From: Bacteroidota bacterium
GTDB lineage: Bacteria; Bacteroidota; Bacteroidia; Bacteroidales; B18-G4
NCBI GenBank assembly: GCA_018831055.1
Contig: JAHJRE010000110.1
Location: 1 to 36,505 of the forward strand
Direction: 5' to 3'
Length of the DNA: 36,505 nucleotides
Shown here: piece by piece, positions 4,800-33,453 of the stretch
Layout: each line of letters begins with the position of its first letter
Position numbering within the stretch: position 1 is the stretch's first letter
The notes under the pieces: generated by a model
The model's input: only the letters and a program-made list of their open reading frames with translations
The model's database searches: none
Told to the model about the DNA's origin: nothing
Program-made: the position numbers and the translations under genes

Positions 4800-5252
4800 T
4801 TAATTGTAATTATTTAAGGCTAACATCCTGGCTTTCTCTATTCTTCCCTTGACAAATCCCTCCGGTTCGTGTTCCTGCCCGGCAGCCATCATAACCTTTT
4901 TAACATCAGTATTGCTTAAAATGAACTCTAATCCTTTCAGCTGGCCGGATTTCTGAGAAAGCGAAGCATTCCTGTTTTCCTGCTGAATGACTTTGTCGAC
5001 AAAGATGTACTGCTCTATCCCAAATACAACCAACAGTGTAATGGATGCTGCAGCAAGAAATCTCACTGCCATAGAAATTGCCGTGCCATATCTCAGGATA
5101 AAACGGGGTGTTATTTCTTCCACCTCATCCTGAATCCCTTGCATTATGCTATCGGTCAGCTTCTCCGGGTTGTCCAGCACCGGATCCCTTTTCAGATTAC
5201 CAATGATTTTAACGTAAGCAGAATCATCGGCTATGTTTTTATTTCTGCTCAT
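4800..5252 (-). CDS. Putative anti-sigma factor (150 aa, single-pass membrane protein)
   Basis: Its start codon overlaps the ECF sigma stop by 4 bp (ATGA). It has a cytoplasmic N-terminus of about 65 aa and one transmembrane helix, AISMAVRFLAAASITLLVVFGI. Position and topology are typical of an ECF anti-sigma, but no diagnostic motif is present. Confidence 0.5.
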   Translation of the reverse strand: MSRNKNIADDSAYVKIIGNLKRDPVLDNPEKLTDSIMQGIQDEVEEITPRFILRYGTAISMAVRFLAAASITLLVVFGIEQYIFVDKVIQQENRNASLSQKSGQLKGLEFILSNTDVKKVMMAAGQEHEPEGFVKGRIEKARMLALNNYN

Positions 5253-5818
5253 TTGTTTTTCCTTTCACCGTTAAGTATATAGTTTAACTTTTCTTTTACT
5301 GCTTTCCTGGCATGATAAAGATTGCTTTTAACCTGTGTTTCGTCAATTTCCAGGATGGCTTCCACTTCTTCTGAACTCATTTCCTGGAGATCCCTCATTG
5401 CAAATACCAGCCGTTGCTTTTCAGGAAGTTTATCTGCCAGGAGTCTGATAATTTGTCCCAATTCTTTATTGTCCAGGATTAATTCCATTGAGTCTTCCTG
5501 CATCTGCTGTAGTTTATCTCCCAGATCATCGATCTTCATGGTATTGGCCCGCCGGATGGATCTGAACCTGTCAATAGCAGTATTTGTTACGATCCGGTAC
5601 ATCCAGGTGGTTAATTTCATTCGGGTATCATATTCACCTATTTTTCGCCATATCTTTATAAAACTTTCCTGGACGCTGTCCTTTGCTTCCTCCTCGTCGC
5701 AAAGTATCCTGAAGGCAAGGTTGTAAGCGTATTGCCGTTGTTCTTCGACAAGCTTCCGGAAAGCTTCCTGACTGCCGTTCTTTATTTCATTGATGATATC
5801 TCTGGTCACTATTTGCAT
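5249..5818 (-). CDS. RNA polymerase ECF-type sigma-70 factor (189 aa)
   Basis: The sigma-70 region 2 (...IKIWRKIGEYD...TWMYRIVTNTAIDRFRS...) and region 4 (...LPEKQRLVFAMRDLQEMSSEEVEAILEIDETQVKSNLYHARKAVKE...) have the ECF subfamily layout. Confidence 0.85.
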   Translation of the reverse strand: MQIVTRDIINEIKNGSQEAFRKLVEEQRQYAYNLAFRILCDEEEAKDSVQESFIKIWRKIGEYDTRMKLTTWMYRIVTNTAIDRFRSIRRANTMKIDDLGDKLQQMQEDSMELILDNKELGQIIRLLADKLPEKQRLVFAMRDLQEMSSEEVEAILEIDETQVKSNLYHARKAVKEKLNYILNGERKNK

Positions 5819-9046: not shown

Positions 9047-10111
9047 CTATTTGCCATACTCCAAACCATAACGGTTCAATATTTCGCTGTAAAGGGGCAA
9101 TTCTATCTTGCTGACCAAAACCGGATCAATTTCATGTATCAGGTCTTTATTGGTTGAAGCAAAAGAAAAATATTCCTTGGTATATGCGCTTGGTATCAAT
9201 AGAATTTTCTCTTCCAGGAATAAATGTTGTACCATGTACCTGAGTATGGCCTCATCGTATACAAAAGCCTGTAATATTTCTTTATTGACTGCATCCAGTC
9301 CTTTTCCAAGATCTTTCATGTTTTGTGATATGATACCGTATTCTTTCAGGAATTCTGCTGATGCCGAATTCTCAATGCTACCCACACTCACGCGTTGCAA
9401 ATCCTCCAGCCCCTTTACCGCTGATGATAAATTGTGTACCGTTAACGCTGAAGCAATGGCAGCAGTGAAACTGGATATCAAAACAATAGCCGTGAACATC
9501 CAGATTATGGAGATTATCCTGCCCATGATGGTTTTAGGTGTTTTATCCCCGTATCCCACCGTGGTCATTGTCACCGCCGACCACCAGATCCCATCACCAA
9601 GTCCCTTGATACCATCATTGAAATGATCTTTGTTTTTTCTCCTCTCAAGTAACCAGACTATGGTACCAAATATAACTATGATAAGAAAAAAAGCCGAGAC
9701 TATCCGAAGAAACTCCCATGACATCAATCCCCGGAAAATCGTAGTAAAAGTGCCTCCGGACTTTGCTTTCACCGCTATGGCCAGGTTGGTGACGTAAAAT
9801 GGTTGTGTGAAATAAAACTTCTTTATCCGTTCGGCAGTCACAGTCAATGGATTGATGCTAAGATCAACATCTCCATTCTCTATAGCCTGAAGTAACCCTC
9901 CCAGATCATATTCCCTGAATTCATAATCATAATGAAGATCCTCGGCTATTATTTTCCATAAATCAATAGATACTCCATTATATGTTTCACCATTTTTGAT
10001 TACAAACGGTGGCGCCTCCTTAATCCCTATTATCAGTTTCCTTTCCTGCGAATATCCTGAAAAACAACTAAAGATAACAGCGATGCCCAAAATCAAGACG
10101 TACCTTTTCAT
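9047..10111 (-). CDS. GluR0-like ligand-gated potassium channel: solute-binding lobe S1, then pore (M1–P–M2), then lobe S2
   Basis: It has a signal peptide. An SBP-family-3-like N-terminal lobe (KLIIGIKEAPPFVIK...GVSIDLW...) is followed by two hydrophobic helices flanking the K+ selectivity filter TMTTVGYGD, then a second binding-lobe segment. This is the split-SBP-plus-pore architecture of prokaryotic ionotropic glutamate receptor homologs. Confidence 0.72.
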   Translation of the reverse strand: MKRYVLILGIAVIFSCFSGYSQERKLIIGIKEAPPFVIKNGETYNGVSIDLWKIIAEDLHYDYEFREYDLGGLLQAIENGDVDLSINPLTVTAERIKKFYFTQPFYVTNLAIAVKAKSGGTFTTIFRGLMSWEFLRIVSAFFLIIVIFGTIVWLLERRKNKDHFNDGIKGLGDGIWWSAVTMTTVGYGDKTPKTIMGRIISIIWMFTAIVLISSFTAAIASALTVHNLSSAVKGLEDLQRVSVGSIENSASAEFLKEYGIISQNMKDLGKGLDAVNKEILQAFVYDEAILRYMVQHLFLEEKILLIPSAYTKEYFSFASTNKDLIHEIDPVLVSKIELPLYSEILNRYGLEYGK

Positions 10112-10641: not shown

Positions 10642-10797
10642 CAATTCAGAGCCTGGCAAGCCATTTTGTCACATATACAAATCTAAATATGACTTTTTGT
10701 AAAGGAAAGATGAATACTTATTGATTTGGCATGTTATTCGCTTAAACCTCAGCCAAAATCCACAAAGTTTAACGATATTTGTAAAAAAGCCATTACC

Positions 10798-11745
10798 ATG
10801 AGCGAAACCACAGAAAAAGTACAATGCCTGATCATTGGATCGGGGCCTGCAGGTTATACCGCAGCCATTTATGCAGCACGTGCCGACCTAAAACCTGTTA
10901 TTTATGAAGGTTTACAACCGGGCGGGCAGTTAACCACAACCACAGAAGTCGAAAATTTCCCGGGATACCCTGAGGGCATCACAGGGCCGGTTATGATGGA
11001 AGATTTAAAAAAGCAGGCACTTCGGTTTGAAACGGATGTGCGTTTTGGTTTGATCACCGGGGTCGACTTTTCCCAAAGGCCATTTAAAGTCAAAGCCGAC
11101 GACGGGAAGACCATCCTGGCCGAAACCGTGATCATAGCTACCGGCGCAACAGCCCAATGGTTGGGATTACCATCTGAATCGGAATATAACGGTTATGGCG
11201 TGTCGGCCTGTGCCACCTGCGACGGGTTTTTCTACCGCGGAAAGGTTGTGGCCGTTGTTGGCGGTGGGGATACGGCAGCAGAAGAAGCTACCTATCTCGC
11301 CAAGCTTTGCAAAAAGGTTTATCTCATCCACCGCCGTGATGAGCTCCGCGCTTCCAAAGCCATGCAGAAGAAAGTCCTGGAAACACCCAATATTGAGGTG
11401 CTCTGGAGCCATGTCACCAAAGAGATCGTTGGGAAAAAAGAAGGTTTCGCCAAGGCTGTTACAGGTGCCATCCTGCAAAATGTAAAAACCGGGGAAGAAA
11501 AAACGATCGATATCGATGGTTTCTTTGTAGCGATCGGACATAAGCCCAACACAGAGATCTTCAAAGGACAGCTTGAAACCGATGATCTGGGATATATCCG
11601 TACGAAGCCTGATTCGACCAAAACCAATATTGAAGGGGTGTTTGCCTGCGGCGATGTACAGGATCACGTCTTCCGCCAGGCCATAACAGCGGCCGGAACA
11701 GGATGCATGGCCGCTATCGAAGCGGAACGCTTCCTGTCACACTAA
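10798..11745 (+). CDS. trxB: Thioredoxin-disulfide reductase
   Basis: The FAD-binding GSGPAGYTAA motif, the redox-active CATCDG motif and the NADPH-binding GGGDTAAEEA motif are all present. The start is placed at the internal ATG (MSETTEKVQCLIIGSGPAG...) rather than at the ORF-track start 10726. Confidence 0.9.
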   Translation: MSETTEKVQCLIIGSGPAGYTAAIYAARADLKPVIYEGLQPGGQLTTTTEVENFPGYPEGITGPVMMEDLKKQALRFETDVRFGLITGVDFSQRPFKVKADDGKTILAETVIIATGATAQWLGLPSESEYNGYGVSACATCDGFFYRGKVVAVVGGGDTAAEEATYLAKLCKKVYLIHRRDELRASKAMQKKVLETPNIEVLWSHVTKEIVGKKEGFAKAVTGAILQNVKTGEEKTIDIDGFFVAIGHKPNTEIFKGQLETDDLGYIRTKPDSTKTNIEGVFACGDVQDHVFRQAITAAGTGCMAAIEAERFLSH

Positions 11746-11781: not shown

Positions 11782-13473
11782 CTACCGGTGAATTTGCCCG
11801 AGATAAAACGATGGGCTCACACCGGTAACTTTTTTAAAGGCATTATAAAAAGTTACCCGGTTACTGAATCCCGCGTCGGAGGCAATGGCTTCAAGGGTAA
11901 GGTTTTCATGAGCATTTTCCGCGAAAAGCCTCAATACTTCATTTACACGGTACTCGTTGATCAGGGTATTGAAATTCCTGGAAAAGTGATTGTTGATCAG
12001 TCCTGACAAAACATTTTTATTGGTATTAAGCCGGGCCGCAAGGATATCCAGAGATAAACCAGGGTCAAGGTAGGCTTTTTCACTTTCAAGAACCGTCTGT
12101 AACCGGGAAATCAATTCCGTTCCGGCTTCATGATTGCATAAACCTGTCCTGGGTCTTCTTGATTTGCCAATCATCACCCCCCTTTCCACCAGATCCTGCT
12201 GCTTTTCAACCAGTAACCGGTGAGCTTTTACCAGTTTGTGGTTTCGCCACAAAAGCAGTATTAACAGAACCAACAAAGAAACAAGCAGGATGATCAGCAT
12301 GAGATTCCTGGAAAAATAGATCCTGTTCTTTTCTTCCAGGTTCCTGATCTCCCATTGTTTTTCATTGACCTCATGCCGGATCATCAATTGAGACAGTTCT
12401 GCTTCCCTTTCGCGGTGGTTCAGACTGTCGCTGATTTTCCGCTCAAGCTTGTAATATTTCAATGCCTGCAAAGGCTCACCGTTGGCCTCGTATGCCTCGG
12501 AAAGCACCTTTGCAATTTCCGCCTTATCTTCCGACATTTCACCCTTAACCGCCTGAACATAAGCCTGCAGTCCGGTTTCAATGGCTCTGACAGGTTGCCC
12601 CAGCTTCAGCCACACGTTGGCAATATTCTTGAGGGTTCCGGCTTGCCTTCCCGTGGCGTGGATATGCTCCATTACCGCCAGGGCCGAATCGTAATACATC
12701 AGAGCATTCGGGTATTGGCCCATTTTATAATATATCAAACCGTAGTTGTTGAGCCCCACCGCCAAATCATTAAGGTTTTTTGCTTTCCAGGAAATCATGA
12801 CGGAGCGCTCTGCATAATATAAAGCACTGTCGAATATTTCCTGCATCAGGTAAATATTGCTGATGTTCCCAAGAACAGAATACAGCAGGGATGAATCAGT
12901 CATATCACGGCAATAGGCGTATGCTTTGAAATAACACTTTAGAGCGGCCTCAAGGCTGTCGCTATTCATGTAAGTATTGCCGATATTATTGTAGTCAGAT
13001 GCAATCAATCGAATATCCCCGCTTTGTCTGTCTATCTCAAGTGATCGGATGAAATAATTCAATCCTGAACGATAATCACCCATTTGGGAATAAATGATCC
13101 CGATGTTTGCATACAAATCCGAAACACCGGCAGAATCCCCGGTCTCACGCATGAACATCAGAGCCTGGGAATAATAACCCAGGGCATTGGGGTACTCTCC
13201 CTTTACCAGGGCAGAAGTTCCCATCAGATGCTTTGCCCTGGCCAGTCCGCGTGAATAGCCCAGTTCATCTGAAAGTTTCTCTGCCTGCAGGGCCAATGCA
13301 TAAGTTGAGTCAGGATAGGAGAAGACAACCTGCCTTGCGTTATTTAAAATGGAGTTTATCCTTATCGTATCGTTGGAATTGACCGCTGTGGTTTCATTGG
13401 GTAAAGCGGCATTAAGGAAGGCGGAGGAGCCTGTCCATACGAAAATTATGAAAAAAACTATCCTATTCCGCAT
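11782..13473 (-). CDS. Membrane-anchored TPR-repeat / AraC-family HTH transcriptional regulator (563 aa)
   Basis: It has a signal peptide, a long TPR-like repeat region (recurring ...LG.Y..AL.YY..AL...) and a hydrophobic helix (LMLIILLVSLLVLLILLLW). The C-terminal AraC-type HTH reads ...LDPGLSLDILAARLNTNKNVLSGLIN...RVNEVLRLF...EAIASDAGFSNRVTFYNAFKKVTGVSPSFY. Confidence 0.75.
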   Translation of the reverse strand: MRNRIVFFIIFVWTGSSAFLNAALPNETTAVNSNDTIRINSILNNARQVVFSYPDSTYALALQAEKLSDELGYSRGLARAKHLMGTSALVKGEYPNALGYYSQALMFMRETGDSAGVSDLYANIGIIYSQMGDYRSGLNYFIRSLEIDRQSGDIRLIASDYNNIGNTYMNSDSLEAALKCYFKAYAYCRDMTDSSLLYSVLGNISNIYLMQEIFDSALYYAERSVMISWKAKNLNDLAVGLNNYGLIYYKMGQYPNALMYYDSALAVMEHIHATGRQAGTLKNIANVWLKLGQPVRAIETGLQAYVQAVKGEMSEDKAEIAKVLSEAYEANGEPLQALKYYKLERKISDSLNHREREAELSQLMIRHEVNEKQWEIRNLEEKNRIYFSRNLMLIILLVSLLVLLILLLWRNHKLVKAHRLLVEKQQDLVERGVMIGKSRRPRTGLCNHEAGTELISRLQTVLESEKAYLDPGLSLDILAARLNTNKNVLSGLINNHFSRNFNTLINEYRVNEVLRLFAENAHENLTLEAIASDAGFSNRVTFYNAFKKVTGVSPSFYLGQIHR

Positions 13474-13507
13474 GGGTTAAATTTTACGGAAAGATAGGGG
13501 TTTTTGA

Positions 13508-13540
13508 ACCACAATAGACACTTAGGACACATTAGTTTTT
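13508..13540 (-). promoter_or_regulatory. Copy 1 of the ctaatgtgt-n-cta-nn-gtg-n-ctattgtggt motif, about 35 bp upstream of the TPR–AraC regulator 11782-13473
   Basis: The minus strand reads aaaaactaatgtgtcctaagtgtctattgtggt, followed by ttcaaaaacccctatctttccgtaaaatttaaccc and then the ATG. It is in sense orientation relative to the regulator gene. Confidence 0.5.
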
Positions 13541-13557
13541 GCAGTTCTCATTAAATG

Positions 13558-16500
13558 CTAATTTATTAATACTCTATGAACCTGCATCTTTTCAGTCATA
13601 TGGATGCTAACAAAATAAATCCCCGAAGGCAAACCAAGCGTTTCCTGCTGATTGTGACTTCCGGTCAATGTGAACCTCAGCAACTCCCTTCCTGAAATAT
13701 CCGTCACAGAAGCCTCTCCCCTTTCACCATCCGGATTCAGGATATAGATGATGTCATTGTAATGAAATACCTGCAAAGGATGCATCATTACCGCGTCTTC
13801 TATCCCGGTTATATCCTTAAAATGCAGGAAGAAACGGCCCGTTCCGCTTTCATCCACCCAGGTGGTGTAACGCTCATTTTTCAGGTTGGTGAAGGTGTTT
13901 GTCTGGCGGTCTTCAAGGAAGAGGGGGATGCTTTCCAATTGCATTGTCTCGGCTGCAAACTCAATCTGCCGGGCCTCCGGAACATCTATACCAACATTGA
14001 CAACTATGGATTCTATGTTTTCCGGGGGCAGGGCCTGTATGGCAAAATCAACACCATTGTCTTCGATAAGCCGGGTATAGAGAGCGAGTTCAGGATTTCC
14101 CTTCATTTTTCCGACATCGTAGGATGGATCCAGGCCGGGCGTCATACCTGAAACTAATAAAATCTCAGTTTTGTTATATTGTTCTCCGGTACTTGCATAT
14201 AATCGCAAGCCCGGGTGATCGCTTTCAGTTTCATTTTTATAATAGGCGGATGTACCGTGTTTACGTATGCTCGTATTGAAATTCAGTGTTGCCCCGTTAC
14301 TGGCGGCCATAACCATAAAACCCTGGCCGGGTGAGGCGTAGAATGCAGCATCAGCGTTTGCAACCGCATCGTAATCGGCATTGCTTTTCCCGTCCCAGCC
14401 GGCGCTTTCATCCCAAAGGTAAATGGCTTCATATGAATCATTCAATGCAGCAGTATTTTGTGTCAGGAAATTATTGGTAGCATCTGCTCCGGTGTTAATG
14501 GCAATCGTTGAGCTGAAAGGATTACCAACAAGATTGGCACCCTCAAATGAACCTCCGGTTTTGGTGAGATTAATGCTCTGATTGGAAGTATGGAGGGGAC
14601 CGGATAAGGTAATGGTTTTATCTGTAGTCACATAATTTACTGCATATCCTTTGCAATCCGTAAAACCTTCTTCGTCCATTAACGTATTGGTTCCGCTGCC
14701 ATCCGCCCCATTCAGAATATCTATCCAGTAACCGGTATAAGAACCTGATGTATAGCTCTCTTCCCAGCGGTAGAATTGGTTGGATGAACTTCCGGGTGTC
14801 CCCAGCCCAAGATTTAATGCATCAAAATTTCCGCTGGTATTCACAGGATCTGAAATATAATGCCATCTGTCGTGGGTAAGAAAGCGCTCAGCTTTAATAC
14901 TTCCGTCGACTGTCCCGGTTAAGATCAGTGATCCCGTGCCTGTAGCATCCGATTCAAGGGTAAAATCACCTGGGCTGCTCAGGATATTATTATAAAGGTT
15001 ATGTCCGATAGACAACTGGCCACCGGGTTCCAGATCAAGGGAAGAGAGCGGGAGCATATACAACGACTTTGTTATGGTAAGTTTGTTCCCCGGATAAATA
15101 TTCGTATGGCCTATATTAAATACCGAACCATGAATGGTATGTGAACCCGAATAATTAAAGGTGAGGTCAACTCCGCTTCCTACCACCAGGTGATTACATG
15201 CAATGGCTGCACCAATGGTCGGATCACTCCCGCTTTGATTATGCACACCCACGTTATCTGTTGAAGTTGGTACACTCTCCCGGCTCCAGTTTGCGGCTGT
15301 GCTCCAATTGCTGGATGAGGTGTTGAGCCAGGTGTTGAAGGCGGTGGAGGTGGTCCAGGCGGGGCTATTCGTCAATGTCGCATCATTTGTGTTGCTAGTC
15401 AAATCCTGTAAAGCACTTCCTGAGTAATTGTCAAAGGTATAATAAGCAACCAGCCCTGCTTCATCGCCTTCCAGAGTTTTACACATGTTATCCCGGATCT
15501 CTTCTTCTGTGCGGACATCCGACCAAATACGAAGTTCGTCAAGCTTTCCATTGAAATATTGTTCATATCCATCTCGTTTCGCAATAATTATATTCCTGGA
15601 TAAAATACTTAAACTAACATTGGTAGAACCGCTCAGAACTCCATCAAAATAAAGATAAGCGGTTGTGCCATTATAGACGCCAGCTATATGGTGCCAGTTG
15701 TTATCATTCACTCCAAGCCATATTTCTGCTATACCACTCCCATTTCCAATACCGAAAATTATCGCAAGACTATTTGCAATTGTTAAAAAAAACCAATTAC
15801 TAGAAACATCTCTTCCATTATCTATAATTCCGTTAAAAGTTGATGTTGTTCCATCCATCTGCATCCAAAACTCAACAGTAAAATTTGAATTTTGAAGAGA
15901 AGCATTTGCCGGAATGGTTCCGTAATGTGATGATCCGTTAAAATCCAGGCAGTATTTCGGTCCGAAAAAAGCCGGGGAAGCTGACCACTCATTGCCATTC
16001 ATGTTTGTTAATGTACCATTAAGATTGTTGGAAGTAACATCATCCAGTGAGGTTCCGCTGGATTCATTAAAGTTATAATATGCAACCAGGCCGCTCTCTG
16101 AACCGGTAAATTCCTGGTACATTCCTGCCTGAATTTGTTCCTCCGTTTTTACAAAATCCCAAACCCGTACCTCATCGATCTTACCATTCCAGTAATATTG
16201 TGATACCCAAGGGTAAACACCTATTTTAAAAGACCCTGCATTTGCAATGGTACCTGAAAATGTTGAAGGCTGTGATCCGACATTTTTACCGTTTATATAT
16301 AGGATAATACTACCTCCACTGGTCCAGGTCATGGCCACATGCTGCCATAATCCGGTTGTCAGGGTTCCTGCCTGTATATATTTTTGTATACCGCTTGCAT
16401 CCCAGACTGACCCATATAATAATGTACCCGATGTTTCAAGGTCGAAAGCGGTTGAAGCCGGCAGCCATTCTACATTTGATTTTCCCATAATGGTGTGCGG

Positions 16501-16683
16501 TGCGGTTAAATCATCAGGGTAGATCCAGGCTTCAATTGTAAATGAAGTGAAATCAAAAACATCATCATCTGCAACCTCCACGTAATCATTTGCCCCATCA
16601 AAATCCAACGCGTTGTTCTGCGCCATCAAATGGGTGTTCAAACCAATAAACAATAGAATCAATAAAAAGACTTTGGCTTTCAT
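13558..16683 (-). CDS. T9SS-secreted LamG (concanavalin A-like lectin) multidomain protein (1041 aa)
   Basis: A signal peptide is followed by at least two LamG-type modules (LDFDGANDYVEV...EAWIYPD...DEVRVWDFVKTEEQI and LDFNGSSHYGT...DELRIWSDVRTEEEIRDNM). The C-terminal Por/T9SS sorting domain reads ...LPSGIYFVSIHMTEKMQVHRVLIN. Confidence 0.75.
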   Translation of the reverse strand: MKAKVFLLILLFIGLNTHLMAQNNALDFDGANDYVEVADDDVFDFTSFTIEAWIYPDDLTAPHTIMGKSNVEWLPASTAFDLETSGTLLYGSVWDASGIQKYIQAGTLTTGLWQHVAMTWTSGGSIILYINGKNVGSQPSTFSGTIANAGSFKIGVYPWVSQYYWNGKIDEVRVWDFVKTEEQIQAGMYQEFTGSESGLVAYYNFNESSGTSLDDVTSNNLNGTLTNMNGNEWSASPAFFGPKYCLDFNGSSHYGTIPANASLQNSNFTVEFWMQMDGTTSTFNGIIDNGRDVSSNWFFLTIANSLAIIFGIGNGSGIAEIWLGVNDNNWHHIAGVYNGTTAYLYFDGVLSGSTNVSLSILSRNIIIAKRDGYEQYFNGKLDELRIWSDVRTEEEIRDNMCKTLEGDEAGLVAYYTFDNYSGSALQDLTSNTNDATLTNSPAWTTSTAFNTWLNTSSSNWSTAANWSRESVPTSTDNVGVHNQSGSDPTIGAAIACNHLVVGSGVDLTFNYSGSHTIHGSVFNIGHTNIYPGNKLTITKSLYMLPLSSLDLEPGGQLSIGHNLYNNILSSPGDFTLESDATGTGSLILTGTVDGSIKAERFLTHDRWHYISDPVNTSGNFDALNLGLGTPGSSSNQFYRWEESYTSGSYTGYWIDILNGADGSGTNTLMDEEGFTDCKGYAVNYVTTDKTITLSGPLHTSNQSINLTKTGGSFEGANLVGNPFSSTIAINTGADATNNFLTQNTAALNDSYEAIYLWDESAGWDGKSNADYDAVANADAAFYASPGQGFMVMAASNGATLNFNTSIRKHGTSAYYKNETESDHPGLRLYASTGEQYNKTEILLVSGMTPGLDPSYDVGKMKGNPELALYTRLIEDNGVDFAIQALPPENIESIVVNVGIDVPEARQIEFAAETMQLESIPLFLEDRQTNTFTNLKNERYTTWVDESGTGRFFLHFKDITGIEDAVMMHPLQVFHYNDIIYILNPDGERGEASVTDISGRELLRFTLTGSHNQQETLGLPSGIYFVSIHMTEKMQVHRVLIN

Positions 16684-16792
16684 AAGTATTGATTTTAATA
16701 AAATTTGAGATAAAAGACCTGAAGCCGGATACTTGCAACCTGTAACCTGCAGCGCAAAAAATTAAGTGAATAGCCATCCCCCATGGCATTTG

Positions 16793-16870
16793 GCTTAATG
16801 ACTAATCTGGTTTGGCTTTCCGTCATAAAAGGAATCAGTATGTGACCCAAAAATATGAGAGAATAAAAAT
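16793..16870 (-). promoter_or_regulatory. Conserved 5' element upstream of LamG paralog 1 (copy A)
   Basis: The 34-nt core gcttaatgactaatctggtttggctttccgtcat (16793-16826) is identical at 31 of 34 positions to 20364-20397 upstream of the paralog. Weaker similarity continues through a shared tgacccaa block. The element lies about 105-190 bp upstream of the ATG at 16683. Confidence 0.55.
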
Positions 16871-17056
16871 AGGTAATTTTGTGTGGCAAATCAAGAGAAA
16901 ACTTTCATATATTATTAACATGAAATAAGGCTCCTAAATAACATTCCCAAGCAAGCATTATGTGAGGCAATTCTCCATTGAGTTTTTTACTTTAATCCGC
17001 TAACCAAACTACTCTGATTATTCTTGATAAATCAGGAAACGGGTAGTGATTAATTT

Positions 17057-17125
17057 ATTAATCTATCCACAATAGTCACAATAAAACACAGTAATAGACT
17101 TAAAAAACTAATGTGTGCTATTGTG
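17057..17125. repeat. Perfect 17-bp inverted repeat (ccacaatagtcacaata ... tattgtgactattgtgg) with a 35-nt spacer; the right arm is copy 2 of the ctattgtggt motif
   Basis: The arm 17057-17073 is the exact reverse complement of 17109-17125. The repeat starts about 24 nt past the stop of LamG paralog 2 (which ends at 17149). It lies about 375 bp upstream of LamG paralog 1. Confidence 0.6.
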
Positions 17126-17148
17126 ACTATTGTGGTGAAATACAATCA

Positions 17149-20100
17149 CTAATACGTCACCAACACCTTACGGCTCACAACTCCCTCGCTTGCCCGGAAA
17201 CACACCACATACAAGCCTCCGGGAAGGTTATGGGAATAGCTTTGTTCAGATTCTCCATCCAAAATGCCCGATAACACAGGTTTGCAGGTCATATCGAATA
17301 CGGCAAACTGCCCGGTAAGCTGTTCAGGATTGCTTATATGCAACGTATTACCACCGTTCCAGGCTAAAATATTTATAACCGAACCGGTAAACTGTTTTTC
17401 TCCGATCCCCACCGTGCTGAAATGCAGCAGGAAGCGCCCGGGATCATCGCCTTCGGTTGCGGTAAAGCTGTAAATGGGTTCATTGGTCAGGTTATGGGTA
17501 GTCTGGGTTTGGAGGTCGGTTAAGAAAACCGGAAGATCAGGATCAAGATCATCCGTTCCTTCAATCCGGATGTAAAATTGTGTTCCCTCATTTTTTATAA
17601 AATATAAGGGAATCTGTATGCTTTCACTAAGCTCCGGCAGACCGTTGGTCGATACTGCCTTCCCTTCGGTTTGCGTATAAAACTGAGGTGCATACCCCGG
17701 CAGATACCAGCAATCATAAGCAATATCATAACTCTGGCTTGCTTCAGGTATAAAACGGATCACCGTTTCCTGGGTAGTATGGTACTCAACATCATGAACC
17801 GTAAGCTTTAACGTGTTGACTCCTGTTGATTTATACCAAACATCCGTTTCATGACTTCTTAATGCCTTCGGGATGATCAGGCTTCCTGTCTGGTTTTCTG
17901 CCACATACACCATAAACCCTTGCATTGGCGGGATCATCTCTCCATTATCTATATCCGTATAGGAAGCGCTGCTTTCCTGCCAGATCTTTGCCGTGCTGCC
18001 TATATTCTGCTGCTGCCAATTGAGATCCCATTCAATGTCCCATGTCCAAATAACACCACACGGAAATGGATTTCCCAGCAAATGCCACCCTCTGTTCTCC
18101 GAAGTAAGGGTGTGTGTGAGGTTAGTGATGCTTACATTGGAATTATTCCAGGTTCCGCTGAATGACTTGGTCTGATCTGATCCGTAAGCCACCAGATATC
18201 CCTTTCCCACCGTGAAGGTGCTTTCAAAACTGCTGTTCCAGCTTCCATCTCCGGCCTTGGTGTTGATCCAGTAATTCGTGGGTTCATCCCAACTGTAAAA
18301 GTCCTCATTTACTGTGGGGGGATCGGATACAAAACCCGGCTGAATGGCCTGAGCTGAAACGGGAGAAGAAAGAAAATGCCAGCCATGATTAGCATCGGTC
18401 CATTGTGCAATATAGCGCTGAATTTCATAACTTCCGGATCCTGAATACGTACCGTCAGCAACAACGGAACCTGTTCCTGATGATGTACTTTCCAGAAGGA
18501 AAGTTCCCTCATTGACAATACCACTGTATATGTCGATCATCCCTCCCGGCCTGACCGTTAAAGTTTTTCCTGAGGTAATAACCGCCTTATCAACACGCAT
18601 TCCACAATTGTCGGGTATATCAAAATCTGAGTTTACCAGAAAGTTTTCATCCACATCCAATGGATTGGAAAAGGTAATATCCGCACTGGCGCCTATCACC
18701 AGGTTCCGGCATTCGATGTTCCAGTCATAGGATGGTTGTACCGAGGCCCCCCCGTAATAATAAACCCCGGTGTTATGGCCGGTTGTGGGGTATGATCCGA
18801 GGCTCCAGTTGGAGGTGGTACGCCAGTTGCTGTTGGTTGTATTCAACCAGGTGTTGAAGGCGGAAGAAGCTGTCCAGGATGGAATGGTATAAGAACCTCC
18901 ACCACTTCCCTGCCAGGTGCCGTCAATATCATTACCCGAGATATCCTGCAGGCTTGTCCCGGTAACATTATCAAATGTATAATAAGCAGCCAGGTTGCTT
19001 TCCTGGGTTACATCGAGCATCCGGCACATATTTTCACGAAGCTCCAATGGTGTTCTTACATCATTCCATATCCTGAGTTCATCAATGGAACCATTCATCA
19101 GACGGCCACCCGGTTCACCGGGTGAATCCCCGATCCTTGGATTTTGTGAAGAGGACAAGATCGATGTCGAATGGCTCGAGGAATACACTTCAACACCGTT
19201 AACATAAAGCCGGACATCAGATCCGTCGTAAGTAGCTGCGACATGCTGCCAGGTATTCAACGTCAATACCCCGGTGGCAATAGTGACTGCCCAGTTATAA
19301 CCCCCTGAATACGACATCGTAAAATCAAGGTCACCTCCAGCCCCTCCAAACCGGAATACATAACCCTCACTGTTCGCTCCCCCCCAATAATCATTTCCGA
19401 TGATCGTGTTCTTAAAATATTCATCCTTGAAATCAGTCGGGTATATCCAGGCTTCAATTGAAATATTGGTACCGGTAATATTTAATGCACTTTCTAATGC
19501 TACGTAGTCGTCAGTCCCATCAAAACCCAGGCACTGCTTTGGCCCGAAAAGTGCCGGGGATGTCTGCCATTCATTACCGCTCATATTTGTGAGGGTACCA
19601 TTAAAACTCCCTTTCGTGTCAATTGCAGTAGTTCCGGTGGTCTCGTTAAGCTTATAGTAAGCGACAAGATCCGAACCCGGACTGATGATCTCCCGGTACA
19701 TGTTCTGCCGGATCTCATCCTGGGTCCTGGCATCGTTCCATATCCTTACTTCATCCATCAATCCGTCAAAATATCTTTCGGTGCCCGATCCACCAATTTC
19801 CATAGTACTCATACCATTGGTAATATTCCCGGTATGGGCAACGGTTTTCTCCAGGATACCATTCACATATATTCTCAGATTCGATCCATCATAGGTACCT
19901 GCAATGTGATACCATTTGTTTACTAGCATTTGAGTTGTGCCGGTGCATTTTTTATTTCCGGAGCCTGTCGTAACTACAAATTGGGGAATATCATTGTCTT
20001 CCAGTTCGCCAGGATGGCTATCCCCAATCCTGAGTAAGGATGAAGCATCGTTGTGCCCGGCAACATTTGATATCCTGGCATCCGGAACCGGATCATTGAA

Positions 20101-20274
20101 TGAATGCGGATAAACCCAGGCTTCTATTGTGATTCCTGAAAATCCATTGGAACTTAAGCCTGTAATGCTTATATAATCATTATCGCCGGCAAAGTCGAGT
20201 AAGTTGTTCTGTGCCATGGAATTAATCCCTAAAATCCAAAGCAAAACAATTGACAATAATATTTTAGTCTTCAT
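17149..20274 (-). CDS. T9SS-secreted LamG multidomain protein, paralog of 13558-16683 (also 1041 aa)
   Basis: It has the same architecture and is collinear with its paralog, for example IDELRIWNDVRTPLELRENMCRML...AAYYTFDNVTGTSLQD...SAFNTWLNTTNSNW against LDELRIWSDVRTEEEIRDNMCKTL...VAYYTFDNYSGSALQD...TAFNTWLNTSSSNW. The T9SS C-terminal domain is ...GGLYVVCFRASEGVVSRKVLVTY. Confidence 0.75.
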   Translation of the reverse strand: MKTKILLSIVLLWILGINSMAQNNLLDFAGDNDYISITGLSSNGFSGITIEAWVYPHSFNDPVPDARISNVAGHNDASSLLRIGDSHPGELEDNDIPQFVVTTGSGNKKCTGTTQMLVNKWYHIAGTYDGSNLRIYVNGILEKTVAHTGNITNGMSTMEIGGSGTERYFDGLMDEVRIWNDARTQDEIRQNMYREIISPGSDLVAYYKLNETTGTTAIDTKGSFNGTLTNMSGNEWQTSPALFGPKQCLGFDGTDDYVALESALNITGTNISIEAWIYPTDFKDEYFKNTIIGNDYWGGANSEGYVFRFGGAGGDLDFTMSYSGGYNWAVTIATGVLTLNTWQHVAATYDGSDVRLYVNGVEVYSSSHSTSILSSSQNPRIGDSPGEPGGRLMNGSIDELRIWNDVRTPLELRENMCRMLDVTQESNLAAYYTFDNVTGTSLQDISGNDIDGTWQGSGGGSYTIPSWTASSAFNTWLNTTNSNWRTTSNWSLGSYPTTGHNTGVYYYGGASVQPSYDWNIECRNLVIGASADITFSNPLDVDENFLVNSDFDIPDNCGMRVDKAVITSGKTLTVRPGGMIDIYSGIVNEGTFLLESTSSGTGSVVADGTYSGSGSYEIQRYIAQWTDANHGWHFLSSPVSAQAIQPGFVSDPPTVNEDFYSWDEPTNYWINTKAGDGSWNSSFESTFTVGKGYLVAYGSDQTKSFSGTWNNSNVSITNLTHTLTSENRGWHLLGNPFPCGVIWTWDIEWDLNWQQQNIGSTAKIWQESSASYTDIDNGEMIPPMQGFMVYVAENQTGSLIIPKALRSHETDVWYKSTGVNTLKLTVHDVEYHTTQETVIRFIPEASQSYDIAYDCWYLPGYAPQFYTQTEGKAVSTNGLPELSESIQIPLYFIKNEGTQFYIRIEGTDDLDPDLPVFLTDLQTQTTHNLTNEPIYSFTATEGDDPGRFLLHFSTVGIGEKQFTGSVINILAWNGGNTLHISNPEQLTGQFAVFDMTCKPVLSGILDGESEQSYSHNLPGGLYVVCFRASEGVVSRKVLVTY

Positions 20275-20363
20275 TCTATATTATGTTTAAGTATATAAAA
20301 ATTGTAAAACCCTTAGGATAAAAGTTAACACGATACACCCAGGACAGGGCAATGCAGAAAATA

Positions 20364-20420
20364 GCTTAATGACTGATCTGGCTTGGCTTTCTGTCATTTA
20401 ATTAATCACAATTGACCCAA
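20364..20420 (-). promoter_or_regulatory. Conserved 5' element upstream of LamG paralog 2 (copy B)
   Basis: The sequence gcttaatgactgatctggcttggctttctgtcat (20364-20397) is the second copy of the copy-A element. It is followed by a conserved tgacccaa block and lies about 90-145 bp upstream of the ATG at 20274. Confidence 0.55.
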
Positions 20421-20596
20421 TTATATGAAGTTATAAAAATATATCATTTTTTAGATTAAATCAAGATTTTTTTCATGGAATAGACTCTTTCAATAAGCCA
20501 AAAATTTCAAATAAAACTTTCTATTGCATTTCTGCTTAATCAGTAAAGACAGCCAACTCTATAAATAAGAACCAGAAAAATAACGTATAATGCAAT

Positions 20597-20625
20597 CTAA
20601 TGTGTACTACTGTGACTATTGTGGT
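20597..20625 (+). promoter_or_regulatory. Copy 3 of the ctaatgtgt...ctattgtggt motif, 65-95 bp upstream of the TPR–AraC regulator 20719-22437
   Basis: The sequence ctaatgtgtactactgtgactattgtggt matches copy 2 at 27 of 29 positions. It is in sense orientation relative to the plus-strand regulator gene. Confidence 0.5.
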
Positions 20626-20718
20626 AAAAAAACCTTAAACCAATCCCATAGTATTTATAACTTTGGCAAGATTGGTAAATCTTAACAACATTTGGGATCA
20701 AAAGAAAAATCTCAGAGT

Positions 20719-22437
20719 ATGCTTAAAAGATTGTTGCACCTGTTAACCTTACTGCTTTTTGCTGGCATTCAAACGATTACATCTCAGAACAACACAGATG
20801 AAAGGCTATTCAGCCAACTTGATTCCCTGGAAGGGGAAGAGTTCAGGAAGAGTGTTGCTATTGTTCTTGACTCCATTTCCAGAATACCCGATTATCAATC
20901 TAAAAAAGCATACGTTAATTCTATCTTTACTATAACAGCTCAAAAGGATGAAATTGCACATATCCAGTCGTTGGTGCATACCGCCAGACTTACCGGCTCT
21001 TCCTCCAAAAAGCTTTTTGACAAGGCCTATCAAATTGCTTTCAAGCATAATCGTATCGACGATATGTGCCTTGTAGAACATGCCAGGGGATTGCATTATA
21101 TAGCAGAAAAAAAGTTCGACTCCGCTATGATCCATATTCTCAGGTACCGGGATATGACCCCGGAAGATACTAAAGGCGAAGGCTACAGAAATATCATTAA
21201 CCTCCTGGGAGATATTTATTACTATGCCGGATTGTATAACCAGGCAAGGGATATTTATTTTAACTTATACACACAATATAAAACAGATAATATCTGGAAC
21301 TTCTACAGGCCATACGTTATGATGAACAATCTCGGACAAATTGCCCTGTACTCCGGCGATATGTCTGAAGCAAAAAAATGGTTTATCCAATCGCTTGAAC
21401 GGGCAGACCAATATCTGCATACTTCCTACCGCAATAATACAATGGCCTATACGAGAATCAAACTTGCCGAAACAGAACTGGAATCGGGGAATCTGGACAG
21501 TGCCCGGATGCTGCTTGACGAAGTTGACAAATATCCTGAAACTACCCTTCATGAAGATGTTTTTCAGGAATATCTTTTCTGCAAAACAAAAATGCTGCTT
21601 GCTCAGGGAAAAGCAAACGAAGCCTTTAACACAGCCCATCTGCTGAAACCATCCGACTCTGTGTCATTTAACCAATATCGTTTTATTCCTGACATATATC
21701 TGCTGCTTTCGGATATTTACCTCCAGCAAAATGATTCTGCTTTGGCCTTTACGCATCTGCAGAAATATCAGAAAATCTCCGACTCCCTGCATAAAAGCGA
21801 AAACATCGCACAGTCAATGATTATCCTTGCCAACCGGAACCATGAACTTACCCGGAACGAACTGAAGTCAACAAAACAACGAAACCGGACACTCTACGGT
21901 GGACTGGTGGTTCTTTTAACCGTACTTCTCATTGTACTGTTCCAATACAGAAGCTTGTACCGGTCCAAACTTAAACTGGTCAGAAAATCGATGGAGAATA
22001 TTGGTGGTTTTGATTTACCTGAATTGAAAAAGGAAGCAGAACAATTACAAAACCATACAAATGAAACTGATTTACAAGAACAAAGAAAACTAATCAATAG
22101 GTTACGGGAATACATGGAATCCCAAAAACCATATTTGGATCCCGGGCTTAATATCCAGGAAACGGCAAAACAATTAACCACCAACCGGACTTACTTATCA
22201 CGAGCCATCAATACTCAACTGGGAACAACTTTTCCTAACTTCATCAACAACTACCGTATCCAGGAAGCCATCCGTCTCATCACGACCGGGTTTACCAAAA
22301 ACCACACTCAGGAAGCACTCGCCAAAAGATCGGGCTTTGCCAGCCGCACAGTCTTTACCTCCGCCTTTAAAAAAATCACCGGAGTAGTACCCTCGTTCTT
22401 TATTGCAAAGTATAAAGATGTTGAGAGGGAAGGGTGA
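20719..22437 (+). CDS. Membrane-anchored TPR / AraC-family HTH regulator, paralog of 11782-13473
   Basis: It has a signal peptide (MLKRLLHLLTLLLFAGIQTITSQ), a TPR-like region and a transmembrane helix (LYGGLVVLLTVLLIVLFQY). The C-terminal AraC HTH reads ...YLDPGLNIQETAKQLTTNRTYLSRAIN...RIQEAIRLI...EALAKRSGFASRTVFTSAFKKITGVVPSFF. An alternative upstream ATG lies at 20692. Confidence 0.75.
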   Translation: MLKRLLHLLTLLLFAGIQTITSQNNTDERLFSQLDSLEGEEFRKSVAIVLDSISRIPDYQSKKAYVNSIFTITAQKDEIAHIQSLVHTARLTGSSSKKLFDKAYQIAFKHNRIDDMCLVEHARGLHYIAEKKFDSAMIHILRYRDMTPEDTKGEGYRNIINLLGDIYYYAGLYNQARDIYFNLYTQYKTDNIWNFYRPYVMMNNLGQIALYSGDMSEAKKWFIQSLERADQYLHTSYRNNTMAYTRIKLAETELESGNLDSARMLLDEVDKYPETTLHEDVFQEYLFCKTKMLLAQGKANEAFNTAHLLKPSDSVSFNQYRFIPDIYLLLSDIYLQQNDSALAFTHLQKYQKISDSLHKSENIAQSMIILANRNHELTRNELKSTKQRNRTLYGGLVVLLTVLLIVLFQYRSLYRSKLKLVRKSMENIGGFDLPELKKEAEQLQNHTNETDLQEQRKLINRLREYMESQKPYLDPGLNIQETAKQLTTNRTYLSRAINTQLGTTFPNFINNYRIQEAIRLITTGFTKNHTQEALAKRSGFASRTVFTSAFKKITGVVPSFFIAKYKDVEREG

Positions 22438-22442
22438 AAAAT

Positions 22443-22561
22443 GGGGGCTGTGAGGCTGGGAGGCTGGGAGGCTGGGGGGCTGTGGATTTATCAGTGGGAT
22501 ATGGTATAATTATTAAAAAAGGTTACATAGGGTTCCCAGTCCCCAGCACCCCAGTCCCCAG
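22443..22561. repeat. Mirrored low-complexity repeat blocks: a G-tract block (tandem GGCTGGGA-like units) and a C-tract block (CCCAGTCC-like units) separated by a 47-nt AT-rich spacer
   Basis: The block 22443-22485 is gggggctgtgaggctgggaggctgggaggctggggggctgtgg. The block 22535-22561 is cccagtccccagcaccccagtccccag. The two blocks are imperfect reverse complements and each contains at least four G3+ or C3+ tracts. They lie between the regulator stop (22437) and the CDF start (22626). Confidence 0.6.
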
Positions 22562-22625
22562 TTTCCATTCCCCCTATACTTGCATCCTTTTTCATATTCC
22601 TTATCTTTGCACAAACATCACTTCC

Positions 22626-23555
22626 ATGTCAAACCGTAACCGTCAGATCATAAGGGCATCCTGGGTAGGGGTGTGGGGTAATGCCCTGCTGTCGGTATTA
22701 AAGATATCTGTAGGTTTGATCGCCGGCAGCCTTGCTGTTGTCGGGGATGGAATTGATTCAGCAGGTGATATTATCGCATCCGTTATCACCCTGCTTACTG
22801 CACGGCTGATGTCGCGCCCACCCAATATGAAGTTCCCGTATGGTTACGAAAAAGCCGATGCTCTCGCTTCCAAAGTGCTTTCGTTTATCATGTTCTTTGC
22901 CGGTGCGCAGTTGGGGATATCTGCGGTGAGTGGCCTTATCCGCGGTGTGGAAAGGGAGATGCCCGCAATGTTCGCAATCTATGCGACCCTGATCTCAATA
23001 GCAGGAAAACTGTTGCTCTCCTGGCATCAGCACAGAGCAGGCAAAAAACTCGACAGCCCCATGCTCGTTGCCAACGGCAGAAATATGCAAAATGATGTAA
23101 TCATCTCCGGGGCTGTTCTTGCAGGCTTGTTTTTTACCTTTTTTCTGAAACTTCCTGTTATCGATTCCATAACTGCCATCCTGGTCAGCCTCTGGATCAT
23201 GTATGCTGCCTATGGCATTTTCATGAAAACCAATCCTGAACTTCTCGACGGAGTGCACGATGAAAAAATCTACGACGATGTTTTCAGGGTGATATCCTCC
23301 ATCAAAGGAGTATATAATCCGCACCGGGCCAGGATTCGCAAAGTGGGGAACCAGTTCGTCATCGCCATCGATATCGAGGTCGATGGCAATAAAACCGTAC
23401 ACGAAGCCCACGATATTGCCCGCCAGGTTGAAGATGCTCTTAAGTCTTCCATTGCTAATGTGTACGACATCCTTGTCCACGTCGAACCCTATGGCAATAT
23501 TGAGAAAGACGAGAAATACGGTGTCTCGGGAAAGGATATCCACGGGATATCCTGA
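22626..23555 (+). CDS. Cation diffusion facilitator (CDF) family metal efflux transporter
   Basis: From the internal ATG (MSNRNRQIIRASWVGVWGNALLSVLKISVGLIAGSLAVVGDGIDSAGD...) the sequence shows the TM1–TM2 signature of CDF transporters, six predicted helices and a C-terminal cytoplasmic domain. The 5' extension from the ORF-track start 22434 runs through a G-rich/C-rich repeat and is unlikely to be coding. Confidence 0.8.
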   Translation: MSNRNRQIIRASWVGVWGNALLSVLKISVGLIAGSLAVVGDGIDSAGDIIASVITLLTARLMSRPPNMKFPYGYEKADALASKVLSFIMFFAGAQLGISAVSGLIRGVEREMPAMFAIYATLISIAGKLLLSWHQHRAGKKLDSPMLVANGRNMQNDVIISGAVLAGLFFTFFLKLPVIDSITAILVSLWIMYAAYGIFMKTNPELLDGVHDEKIYDDVFRVISSIKGVYNPHRARIRKVGNQFVIAIDIEVDGNKTVHEAHDIARQVEDALKSSIANVYDILVHVEPYGNIEKDEKYGVSGKDIHGIS

Positions 23556-33399: not shown

Positions 33400-33453
33400 T
33401 TTTCACAGAAAATCGGTCGTGGCTAAAACATTACTATTTGAACCAACCGGAAA

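Follow-up and report, generated by a model that had tools for sequence, protein, structure and literature searches.

Putative membrane-anchored TPR-AraC regulators beside T9SS LamG surface-protein genes in a Bacteroidales genome

T9SS cargo, which includes adhesins, enzymes and motility proteins, shapes the attachment of Bacteroidota to substrates and the degradation of these substrates. To our knowledge, little is known about the control of individual T9SS cargo genes beyond PorXY/SigP. Membrane-tethered DNA-binding proteins such as ToxR and CadC convert a periplasmic cue into transcription, often of adjacent genes. Two described regulators provide precedents for the proteins studied here: SusR, which senses maltose in the periplasm (PMC10316084), and TfoS from Vibrio cholerae, in which a signal sequence and a periplasmic domain are followed by a transmembrane helix and an AraC helix-turn-helix (HTH), and which is activated directly by chitin oligomers (PMC3903286). 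The hybrid two-component systems of Bacteroidota (HTCS) likewise join an AraC HTH to a periplasmic sensor in one inner-membrane polypeptide.

We analysed a stretch of 36,505 nucleotides of a Bacteroidales genome (contig JAHJRE010000110.1, hereafter the window), for which an earlier note had claimed two membrane regulators with TPR and AraC domains flanking T9SS LamG genes, one regulator gene co-directional and downstream and the other divergent. Coordinates, Pfam, hydropathy and the TIGR04183 profile bear out this description: all four genes were found where the note had placed them, RegA and RegB bracket the 1041-aa paralogues LamG1 and LamG2, RegA runs in the same direction as LamG1, 84 bp downstream, and RegB is divergent from LamG2, with 417-444 bp between them. 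The neighbours of the module are housekeeping genes, a trxB-like gene (10726-11745) on the RegA side and, on the RegB side, a gene for a cation-diffusion facilitator (CDF) transporter (22434-23555). The window annotations contain no SusC/D-like genes, so that the module does not qualify as a susC/susD polysaccharide utilisation locus (PUL), and no por, gld or spr genes were seen within these 36.5 kb. The four genes are the following:

11782-13473, minus strand: RegA, 563 aa (from Pfam, hydropathy and an AF2 model); signal peptide 1-22, predicted periplasmic TPR superhelix 33-330, coiled coil and transmembrane helix 334-430 (membrane segment 391-409), predicted cytoplasmic AraC two-HTH domain 449-562
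13558-16683, minus strand: LamG1, 1041 aa (from Pfam, TIGR04183, a family CTD profile and a model); signal peptide, two LamG jelly-rolls ~24-440, family-specific beta-rich stalk ~441-960, T9SS type-A CTD ~970-1041
17149-20274, minus strand: LamG2, 1041 aa, paralogue of LamG1 with the same architecture
20692 or 20719-22437, plus strand: RegB; signal peptide, TPR domain, one transmembrane helix, AraC HTH

Both regulators carry about 7.5 TPRs (TPR_12, 98 bits in RegA and 41 bits in RegB) and belong to the AraC/XylS family, with HTH_18 scores of 54.7 and 50.7 bits for a cutoff of 33.6. RegA is hydrophobic at residues 5-24 and presents a single strong transmembrane segment at 391-409. RegB starts either at TTG 20692 (581 aa) or at ATG 20719 (572 aa); hydropathy gives it a signal peptide, MLKRLLHLLTLLLFAGIQTITS followed by Q, and places its transmembrane segment at about 400-417. 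The AF2 model of RegA (pLDDT 84.7) places TPR helices at 33-330, a continuous helix crossing the membrane at 334-430 and then an AraC DNA-binding domain of seven helices at 449-562, in support of the one-component transmembrane design proposed earlier. Together, these features suggest that both proteins use a signal peptide to place the TPR domain in the periplasm and, beyond a single transmembrane helix, keep the HTH in the cytoplasm, although the positive-inside charge bias around the transmembrane segment is weak. The same note had suggested a duplicated sensor-regulator/lectin module, and this was not supported in that form: RegA and RegB are 36% identical across the coiled-coil/transmembrane/HTH part and 14% identical in the sensor domain, and they were assigned to different orthologous groups, so that they are not a recent duplicate pair. 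The protein class is widespread, with thousands of relatives, and a search of 1.84 billion proteins returned 87 representative relatives of RegB at E<=1e-30. A PDB sequence search gave no solved full-length relative, its matches being generic TPR and isolated AraC domains, and literature searches for a characterised TPR-TM-AraC regulator found none. Matches of RegA to 'FimS' and 'AfsR' were rejected as generic TPR similarity far under the cutoffs.

One likeness is to the SusR family (NF058541; TPR_SusR PF28559/DUF6377), which also combines a signal peptide, a periplasmic TPR-like sensor, a single transmembrane helix and a cytoplasmic HTH, and whose gene adjoins its target genes. However, the output of SusR is of the LuxR/GerE type, whereas that of RegA and RegB is an AraC two-HTH domain, and the genes at this locus adjoin T9SS LamG cargo instead of a susC/susD PUL. 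Neither protein belongs to the family by score: RegA reaches 23.9 bits with NF058541 (cutoff 480) through a local match at residues 280-430, covering the last TPRs and the transmembrane helix, and RegB has no match. TfoS resembles both in architecture, from the signal sequence through the periplasmic domain and one transmembrane helix to the AraC HTH, but comes from another phylum and acts on an sRNA gene, not on an adjacent gene for a secreted protein; an NCBIfam search gave no match named TfoS. ToxR and CadC have the opposite polarity, with an N-terminal cytoplasmic winged helix and a C-terminal periplasmic sensor, and they lack TPRs. Because Pfam detected no HisKA, HATPase or receiver domain in RegA or RegB, they would operate without a phosphorelay, and they fall outside the HTCS.

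LamG1 and LamG2 are 32% identical from end to end. Each contains two Laminin_G_3 domains scoring above the gathering threshold (184 and 195 bits), with a jelly-roll fold, and Sec signal peptides which, judged from hydropathy and motif only, end in MA before QNN. For the T9SS type-A CTD, TIGR04183 (cutoff 23) gave 30.8 bits for LamG1 and 23.3 bits for LamG2, which barely passes; Pfam Por_Secre_tail (PF18962) scored 19.7 bits on LamG1, under its 27-bit cutoff, and did not match LamG2. A family-specific CTD profile recognised both (6e-24 and 1e-23), and in the LamG1 model residues 971-1040 form a seven-strand beta sandwich. Most likely, the two are modular T9SS surface proteins acting as adhesins or carbohydrate-binding proteins; the resemblance of the LamG fold to CBM40 and pentraxins is at most suggestive of a lectin function. 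An NCBIfam match to the 'TafC fimbrial protein', a haloarchaeal Tat-fimbria subunit, was rejected because it covered only the LamG-like part of TafC.

If the regulators and the LamG genes form a unit, they should co-occur elsewhere, and this synteny check, which the earlier note had proposed, was positive when anchored from the cargo side and from the regulator side. Members of the RegB orthologous group, with sensor domains 40-56% identical to that of RegB, lie divergently beside LamG-family cargo, or clustered with it, at 10 or more other loci. The cargo-anchored genome scan found them divergent at five loci (L007, L011, L015, L026, L049) and clustered at L092, and the regulator-anchored metagenome scan found them likewise divergent from LamG-family cargo at L096, L097 and L103, with partial support at L098 and L102. 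Of 30 TPR signalling genes at the cargo-anchored loci, 22 are no more than 500 bp away from cargo, versus 5.5 expected from random placement within the same loci, and none of 200,000 simulations reached 22. Cargo beside RegB-type regulators scores higher against LamG2 than against LamG1, and the conserved pair is a RegB-type regulator with LamG2-type cargo. Orthologues of the LamG1 type usually have no TPR regulator next to them, as with the closest ones, at L001, L089, L090 and L094. The LamG1-to-RegA layout recurs in one close relative only (L095), and the RegA-type protein P0004 is encoded divergently from a LamG-family gene at L081. The output domain in Bacteroidota is AraC or LuxR: a TPR_SusR and GerE protein is encoded 141 bp upstream of a LamG orthologue at L093, and TPR-TM-LuxR proteins occur at L063 and L027. 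That the output is interchangeable while the pairing persists argues that the link between sensor and cargo is the conserved part. Since the pairing recurs in many other Bacteroidales genomes, it would represent a real regulatory module, and the comparative evidence supports a functional coupling of the regulators to the LamG cargo genes. The divergent neighbour at L091 (Reg_prop/Y_Y_Y) was considered as an alternative sensor-regulator and left out of the count because its output domain was undetectable.

The non-coding DNA of the module contains the following elements:

13499-13545, plus strand: Box1 copy in the interval from the LamG1 stop to the RegA start
16793-16826, minus strand: Box2 copy 1, ATGACGGAAAGCCAAACCAGATTAGTCATTAAGC, ~110 nt upstream of the LamG1 ATG
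16843-16896, minus strand: promoter-like block upstream of LamG1, containing TATTTTTG
17067-17136: Box1 inverted pair directly 3' of the LamG2 stop, with copies at 17067-17093 (plus) and 17108-17136 (minus)
20364-20397, minus strand: Box2 copy 2, ~90 nt upstream of the LamG2 ATG
20413-20466, minus strand: promoter-like block upstream of LamG2, with TATAATTG
20597-20625, minus strand: single Box1 copy between the divergent RegB and LamG2 genes, 67 nt before the RegB TTG
20670-20681, plus strand: leader motif GATTGGTAAATC just upstream of the RegB start

The paired conserved motifs reported earlier are real: Box1 and Box2 are confined to the module, with 0 chance matches expected (for Box2, 2 copies against 0). 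They are 84-89% identical between the two units, versus 32% for the LamG1 and LamG2 proteins, and by this comparison are under constraint; they are candidate operators. The two promoter-like blocks are 72% identical, and TATTTTTG fits the Bacteroidetes -7 motif TAnnTTTG; the block at 16843-16896 is a putative promoter. A generic sigma-70 promoter and intrinsic terminator scan, ill-suited to Bacteroidota promoters, gave no enrichment over shuffles. Neither box turned up in the intergenic DNA of orthologous loci in other genomes, so they may be confined to this lineage or may not be operators. What does recur there is limited to the GATTGGTAAATC leader motif, shared by RegB-type orthologues from four independent clades, and a TATTTTTA-like element.

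It is possible, at somewhat less than even odds, that Box1 acts as a short structured repeat (a terminator at the 3' end, an mRNA-stabilising hairpin or a REP-like element) and that the operators lie elsewhere, for example in the promoter-like block (16843-16896/20413-20466) or in Box2. The inverted pair right after the LamG2 stop would form a terminator-like hairpin with 27-bp arms (-34.7 kcal/mol, z -7.3), and unrelated hairpins of the CACAGAT type follow cargo stops in a similar position at L007, L013 and L015. However, the single copies at 13499-13545 and 20597-20625, the latter with 2 mismatches to 17108-17136, do not fold: they did no better than shuffles, nor did the Box2 regions, and a role in RNA structure is therefore unsupported except for the 17067-17136 hairpin. 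These single copies are also oriented alike relative to RegA and RegB, the one in the RegA leader stays with it in L095 (~95% conserved) across an adjoining 56-bp indel, and three tandem units of ~9-10 nt would suit a two-HTH protein. Scanned against Rfam with a permissive threshold, 13300-20900 gave no matches other than chance ones to miRNA hairpins, which fell on the Box1 inverted pair.

Our main reading, to which we give a probability of about 0.62, is that RegA and RegB are inner-membrane one-component regulators controlling the neighbouring LamG adhesin genes. A Sec signal peptide would send the N-terminal TPR superhelix of ~300 residues to the periplasm, and a single long helix (coiled coil, transmembrane and juxtamembrane parts) would join it to the cytoplasmic AraC-type two-HTH domain. 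Binding of a periplasmic ligand would shift the dimer or the helix register of this signalling helix and switch the AraC domains to a state that binds DNA and recruits RNA polymerase. The TPR fold suggests a peptide or protein as ligand; alternatively, it could be a glycan fragment, as with SusR. Being tethered to the membrane, the regulators are proposed to act on promoters close to where they are encoded, RegB on that of the divergent LamG2 and RegA on that of LamG1, on its own or on both. They would probably activate rather than repress the LamG genes, whose products combine a LamG-LamG head with a beta-rich stalk and a CTD anchor. Against this reading, more distant proteins built like RegA and RegB are encoded beside other T9SS cargo, a CHU_C/SprB protein at L087 and S74 fibre genes at L099, and the link may therefore concern surface or T9SS proteins broadly, not LamG in particular.

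One could also imagine that the periplasmic TPR domain, instead of sensing an environmental cue, recognises its cognate LamG protein during transit, the CTD of this protein or part of the T9SS, and tunes cargo transcription to secretion capacity. The nearest fold to the RegA model is the peptide-binding TPR of LGN/Pins, and the domain resembles other peptide- or protein-binding superhelices (kinesin light chain, Rap phosphatases), but such likeness among TPR folds is generic. The pairing of sensor and cargo under either output would fit this idea, as would the other T9SS cargo at L087 and L099. In Cloacimonadota, however, LamG genes lie next to genes for TPR-HK and TPR-sigma54 proteins whose TPR domain should be cytoplasmic, since they have neither signal peptide nor transmembrane helix, and we consider the idea unlikely. 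A related version, in which TPR sensor and LamG protein form a dedicated signalling pair, the TPR domain recognising the cargo CTD, a processed fragment or a lectin-delivered ligand, is improbable on present evidence; if true, every adhesin would have a private transmembrane feedback sensor, a cargo-coupled logic for T9SS substrates with interchangeable outputs, AraC or LuxR in Bacteroidota. Finally, the genes might be neighbours without regulation, the regulators controlling distant genes and the adjacency arising from shared horizontal mobility or an accessory-gene island. The position of the module between housekeeping genes, the often solitary LamG1-type orthologues and the mobile-element-like genes (AAA_14/DUF4143) at some loci point this way. 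Yet divergent adjacency is kept down to 40% sensor identity, in varied contexts and in searches from both sides, and the pairing extends to another HTH class (L093), which leaves this explanation with little likelihood.

On the preferred reading of local control by RegA and RegB, one subfamily of signal peptide-TPR-TM-AraC proteins would be tied by genome position to one defined family of T9SS surface proteins with LamG heads, providing a concrete regulator-target pair with candidate operators. The SusR/TfoS paradigm of direct periplasm-to-promoter signalling would thereby be extended from nutrient loci to surface-adhesin genes.

The two regulators and two type IX secretion system (T9SS) cargo proteins that the earlier note had described were borne out, open reading frames giving exact coordinates and Pfam/NCBIfam scans the domains. 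Together with two conserved non-coding elements, Box1 and Box2, they form the following module:

Features of the module (genes from the ORF listing and translation)
11782-13473, minus strand: RegA, regulator, 563 aa
13499-13545: single copy of Box1, oriented relative to RegA as the 20597-20625 copy is relative to RegB
13558-16683, minus strand: LamG1, cargo, 1041 aa
16793-16826 and 20364-20397: Box2, 34 nt, ~90-110 nt upstream of each LamG start
17067-17136: inverted pair of Box1, directly 3' of the LamG2 stop
17149-20274, minus strand: LamG2, cargo, 1041 aa
20597-20625: single copy of Box1, oriented relative to RegB as the 13499-13545 copy is relative to RegA
20692-22437, plus strand: RegB, regulator, 581 aa with a TTG start, 572 aa if the ATG at 20719 is used

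A thioredoxin-reductase-like gene flanks the module on one side and a cation-diffusion facilitator (CDF) gene on the other. Directly 3' of the RegB stop, five tandem 8-nt G-rich units (GGGAGGCTG-like, 22443-22482), a possible G-quadruplex or terminator-like element, sit within a doubtful N-terminal extension of the ORF for the CDF transporter, whose true start probably lies further downstream, near MSNRNRQ. Besides housekeeping genes, the rest of the window contains a lanthipeptide cluster (32200-36413), in which a LanC-like cyclase (32200-33399) is joined by a LanB dehydratase split between two genes (Lant_dehydr_N, 33454-35526; Lant_dehydr_C, 35523-36413). It also encodes a GluR0-like prokaryotic ligand-gated potassium channel (9047-10111, minus strand, 354 aa), uniting SBP_bac_3, Lig_chan and Ion_trans_2 in a single protein, and an ECF sigma factor (5249-5818, minus strand). 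The two ORFs that come next (4800-5252 and 3757-4788) match nothing in Pfam and may be an anti-sigma pair; just 3' of the second one lies a weak Box1-like 13-mer with 1 mismatch (3735-3747).

All four module proteins start with a signal-peptide-like segment by hydropathy, and their predicted mature N-termini begin with Q or come after an A|Q-type site, in agreement with the signal-peptidase-I 'Q-rule' known in Bacteroidetes. RegA and RegB are AraC-family proteins by their DNA-binding domain (Pfam HTH_18, 54.7 and 50.7 bits, gathering score 33.6), and several TPR families matched both in Pfam/NCBIfam scans. Each has only one strong internal transmembrane segment by hydropathy (RegA 391-409, RegB ~400-417), positioned between the TPR region and the HTH. 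Because the DNA-binding domain must be cytoplasmic and a single transmembrane segment follows the export signal, the TPR domain is predicted from sequence to be periplasmic. For this domain the earlier note had proposed an AlphaFold prediction; RegA, modelled with AlphaFold2 on a 22-sequence alignment (mean pLDDT 84.7), shows a TPR superhelix. A signal helix is followed by 15 TPR helices at 33-330 and then by an unbroken helix at 334-430, made up of the predicted periplasmic coiled-coil stalk, the membrane-spanning part and a juxtamembrane helix; residues 431-448 form a disordered linker, after which comes an AraC domain with seven helices. The folds nearest to the TPR part are the LGN/Pins, kinesin-light-chain and Rap-phosphatase superhelices, all of them extended-peptide binders; structure/PDB comparison found no full-length solved relative. 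The RegA orthologue P0002, from locus L095 (82% identical), is in its predicted form devoid of the transmembrane segment, ~30 residues being missing in the alignment; an error in assembly or gene calling could account for this, or the variant may be genuinely soluble.

LamG1 and LamG2, which share 32% identity over their full length, each present two Laminin_G_3 domains (184 and 195 bits, Pfam) and the TIGR04183 T9SS type-A sorting domain (NCBIfam, cutoff 23), scored at 30.8 bits in LamG1 and at 23.3 bits, barely over the cutoff, in LamG2; with the Pfam model of the C-terminal sorting domain (CTD), LamG1 stayed below threshold and LamG2 gave no match. Profile searches showed that the region ~441-960 and the CTD constitute a family-specific stalk-and-anchor, which carries other heads in relatives (C-type lectin, Glug/M26_N, G8). 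Since the stalk-and-anchor combines with such varied heads, the proteins fit a modular surface adhesin. The label 'lectin' used at the outset is overstated. The same applies to the idea of a duplicated module: RegA and RegB can be aligned only over their last ~250 residues (33% identity) and, when split at the transmembrane segment, are 14% identical in the sensor domains and 36% in the C-terminal parts, and they are therefore no recent duplicate pair.

What stood from that interpretation is the sensor-regulator/cargo module itself, which, under the comparative-genomics check put forward in the earlier note, is real and syntenic in both the cargo-anchored and the regulator-anchored scans. The former started from a 27-sequence alignment of full-length LamG orthologues, with one genome per GTDB species and flanks of at most 10 kb, and all ORFs of the resulting loci were searched with custom HMMs for the regulator, its HTH, the cargo head, the stalk and the CTD. 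Genes for TPR-TM-AraC proteins of 530-600 aa adjoin a LamG-family gene, mostly divergently and upstream, in L007, L011, L015, L022 (Melioribacteraceae), L026, L027, L031 and L049; further look-ups added L092, whose regulator is transcribed divergently from a group of S74 (Peptidase_S74) fibre, stalk-CTD, PID_CTERM and LamG genes, and in L081 the nearest RegA homologue besides that of L095 is divergent from a LamG-family gene. Within the cargo-anchored loci, a cargo gene is no more than 500 bp away from 22 of the 30 TPR-family hits (E<1e-20), against 5.5 expected from random placement inside the same loci (200,000 simulations, maximum 14, with 22 reached in 0). RegB forms one orthologous group with the regulators of L007, L011, L015, L026, L049 and L092 (sensor domains 40-56% identical), and RegA clusters with P0003 and P0004. 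When the RegB-group alignment was run against metagenome contigs, L096, L097 and L103 showed a directly adjacent, divergent LamG-family cargo gene, L098 both a stalk-CTD and an S74 gene at a distance of 1.7 kb, and L099/L100 divergent S74 fibre-like genes with a CTD protein downstream; L102 is the same contig as L092, and L101 is too short to inform. The cargo beside RegB-type regulators scores higher against LamG2 than against LamG1, and LamG1-type orthologues (L001, L089, L090, L091 and L094; 42-45% identity) mostly have no adjoining TPR regulator. More distant TPR-TM-AraC members adjoin other T9SS cargo, such as a CHU_C/SprB protein in L087.

The pairing survives a swap of the DNA-binding domain: in L093 a TPR_SusR+GerE protein is encoded 141 bp upstream of a LamG orthologue, and L063 and L027 have TPR-TM-LuxR proteins. 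In other lineages, the genes flanking those for two-LamG proteins encode TPR-histidine kinases, a TPR-sigma54 activator or TPR-CHAT proteins; the kinases and the activator of Cloacimonadota have neither signal peptide nor transmembrane helix.

These neighbourhoods contain further recurrent genes. Peptidase_S74 (endosialidase-chaperone) and PTL_trimer fibre-like proteins (L092 4585-5823; L098 6738-7925; L099 3640-6579) recur beside RegB-type regulators and stalk-CTD proteins, which suggests a wider surface-fibre gene neighbourhood. Small genes of ~75-80 aa lie between tandem cargo genes of related Bacteroidales loci (L007 5341-5833; L013 4240-4572; L015 9491-9997 and 14305-14811; L090 2774-3001; L092 7614-7856); their products have a signal peptide, then a Gly-rich stretch of PPEPNGG type and, at the C-terminus, a transmembrane segment followed by KK (Pfam PID_CTERM). 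No such gene stands between LamG2 and LamG1 in the window, and we found no mention of PID-CTERM in the literature.

Box1 (ACCACAATAGTCACAATAGCACACATTAG, ~29 nt) consists of three tandem units of ~9-10 nt each. Both elements are confined to the module, with a chance expectation of 0 matches each, and a 54-nt promoter-like block, 72% conserved between both copies, stands ahead of each Box2. The identity of the boxes between the two units reaches 84-89%, against the 32% of the LamG proteins, which implies selection on the non-coding sequence; in L095, Box1 and the RegA leader are ~95% conserved despite a 56-bp indel between them and the LamG1 stop. RNA folding predicts a very stable hairpin for the inverted Box1 pair (-34.7 kcal/mol, z -7.3), and the single Box1 copies and Box2 regions fold no better than shuffles; no Rfam family covers either element. 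Box1 may act as an operator, as a terminator or REP-like element, or in both roles. In related MAGs (L007, L013 and L015), long imperfect hairpins of tandem ACACAGAT units, immediately 3' of cargo stops, resemble the Box1 hairpin in position and style with a different sequence. The palindrome GATTGGTAAATC (GATT..AATC), found at 20670-20681 and in the regulator leaders of L007, L011, L015, L026 and L092, is conserved 10-40 nt ahead of the RegB-type start codon in four independent clades and could serve either autoregulation or translation initiation.

Two documented precedents support the proposed one-component design of RegA and RegB: SusR, a periplasmic maltose sensor controlling the adjacent sus genes (PMC10316084), and TfoS, in which a signal sequence, periplasmic domain and transmembrane helix are combined with an AraC HTH and which chitin oligomers activate directly (PMC3903286). 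RegA and RegB are likened to them in working mode; membership of the SusR family was rejected (23.9 bits versus 480, another HTH class and no polysaccharide utilisation locus), as was a hybrid two-component system, because kinase and receiver domains are absent. Their architecture is common: when 1.84 billion representative proteins were searched exhaustively with RegB, 87 matched at E<=1e-30 and 6,838 matched at E<=1e-10, and many lower-ranked matches among those listed are full-length (~550-600 aa, 25-30% identity). We found no characterised member of the TPR-TM-AraC class in the literature.

The best-supported reading is that RegA and RegB are membrane-tethered one-component regulators. A ligand would be bound by the periplasmic TPR superhelix, and the signal would pass via the uninterrupted helix to the AraC domains, which would act at promoters that adjoin the regulator's own gene; the ligand and operators, and whether control is positive or negative, are inferred. 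Dedicated feedback sensing coupled to the cargo seems improbable. What is new is that the coupling between one regulator subfamily and a defined family of LamG-headed T9SS cargo is conserved. Since only 84 bp, with no hairpin, separate RegA from LamG1, the two may be co-transcribed, which, if true, would create a feedback loop.
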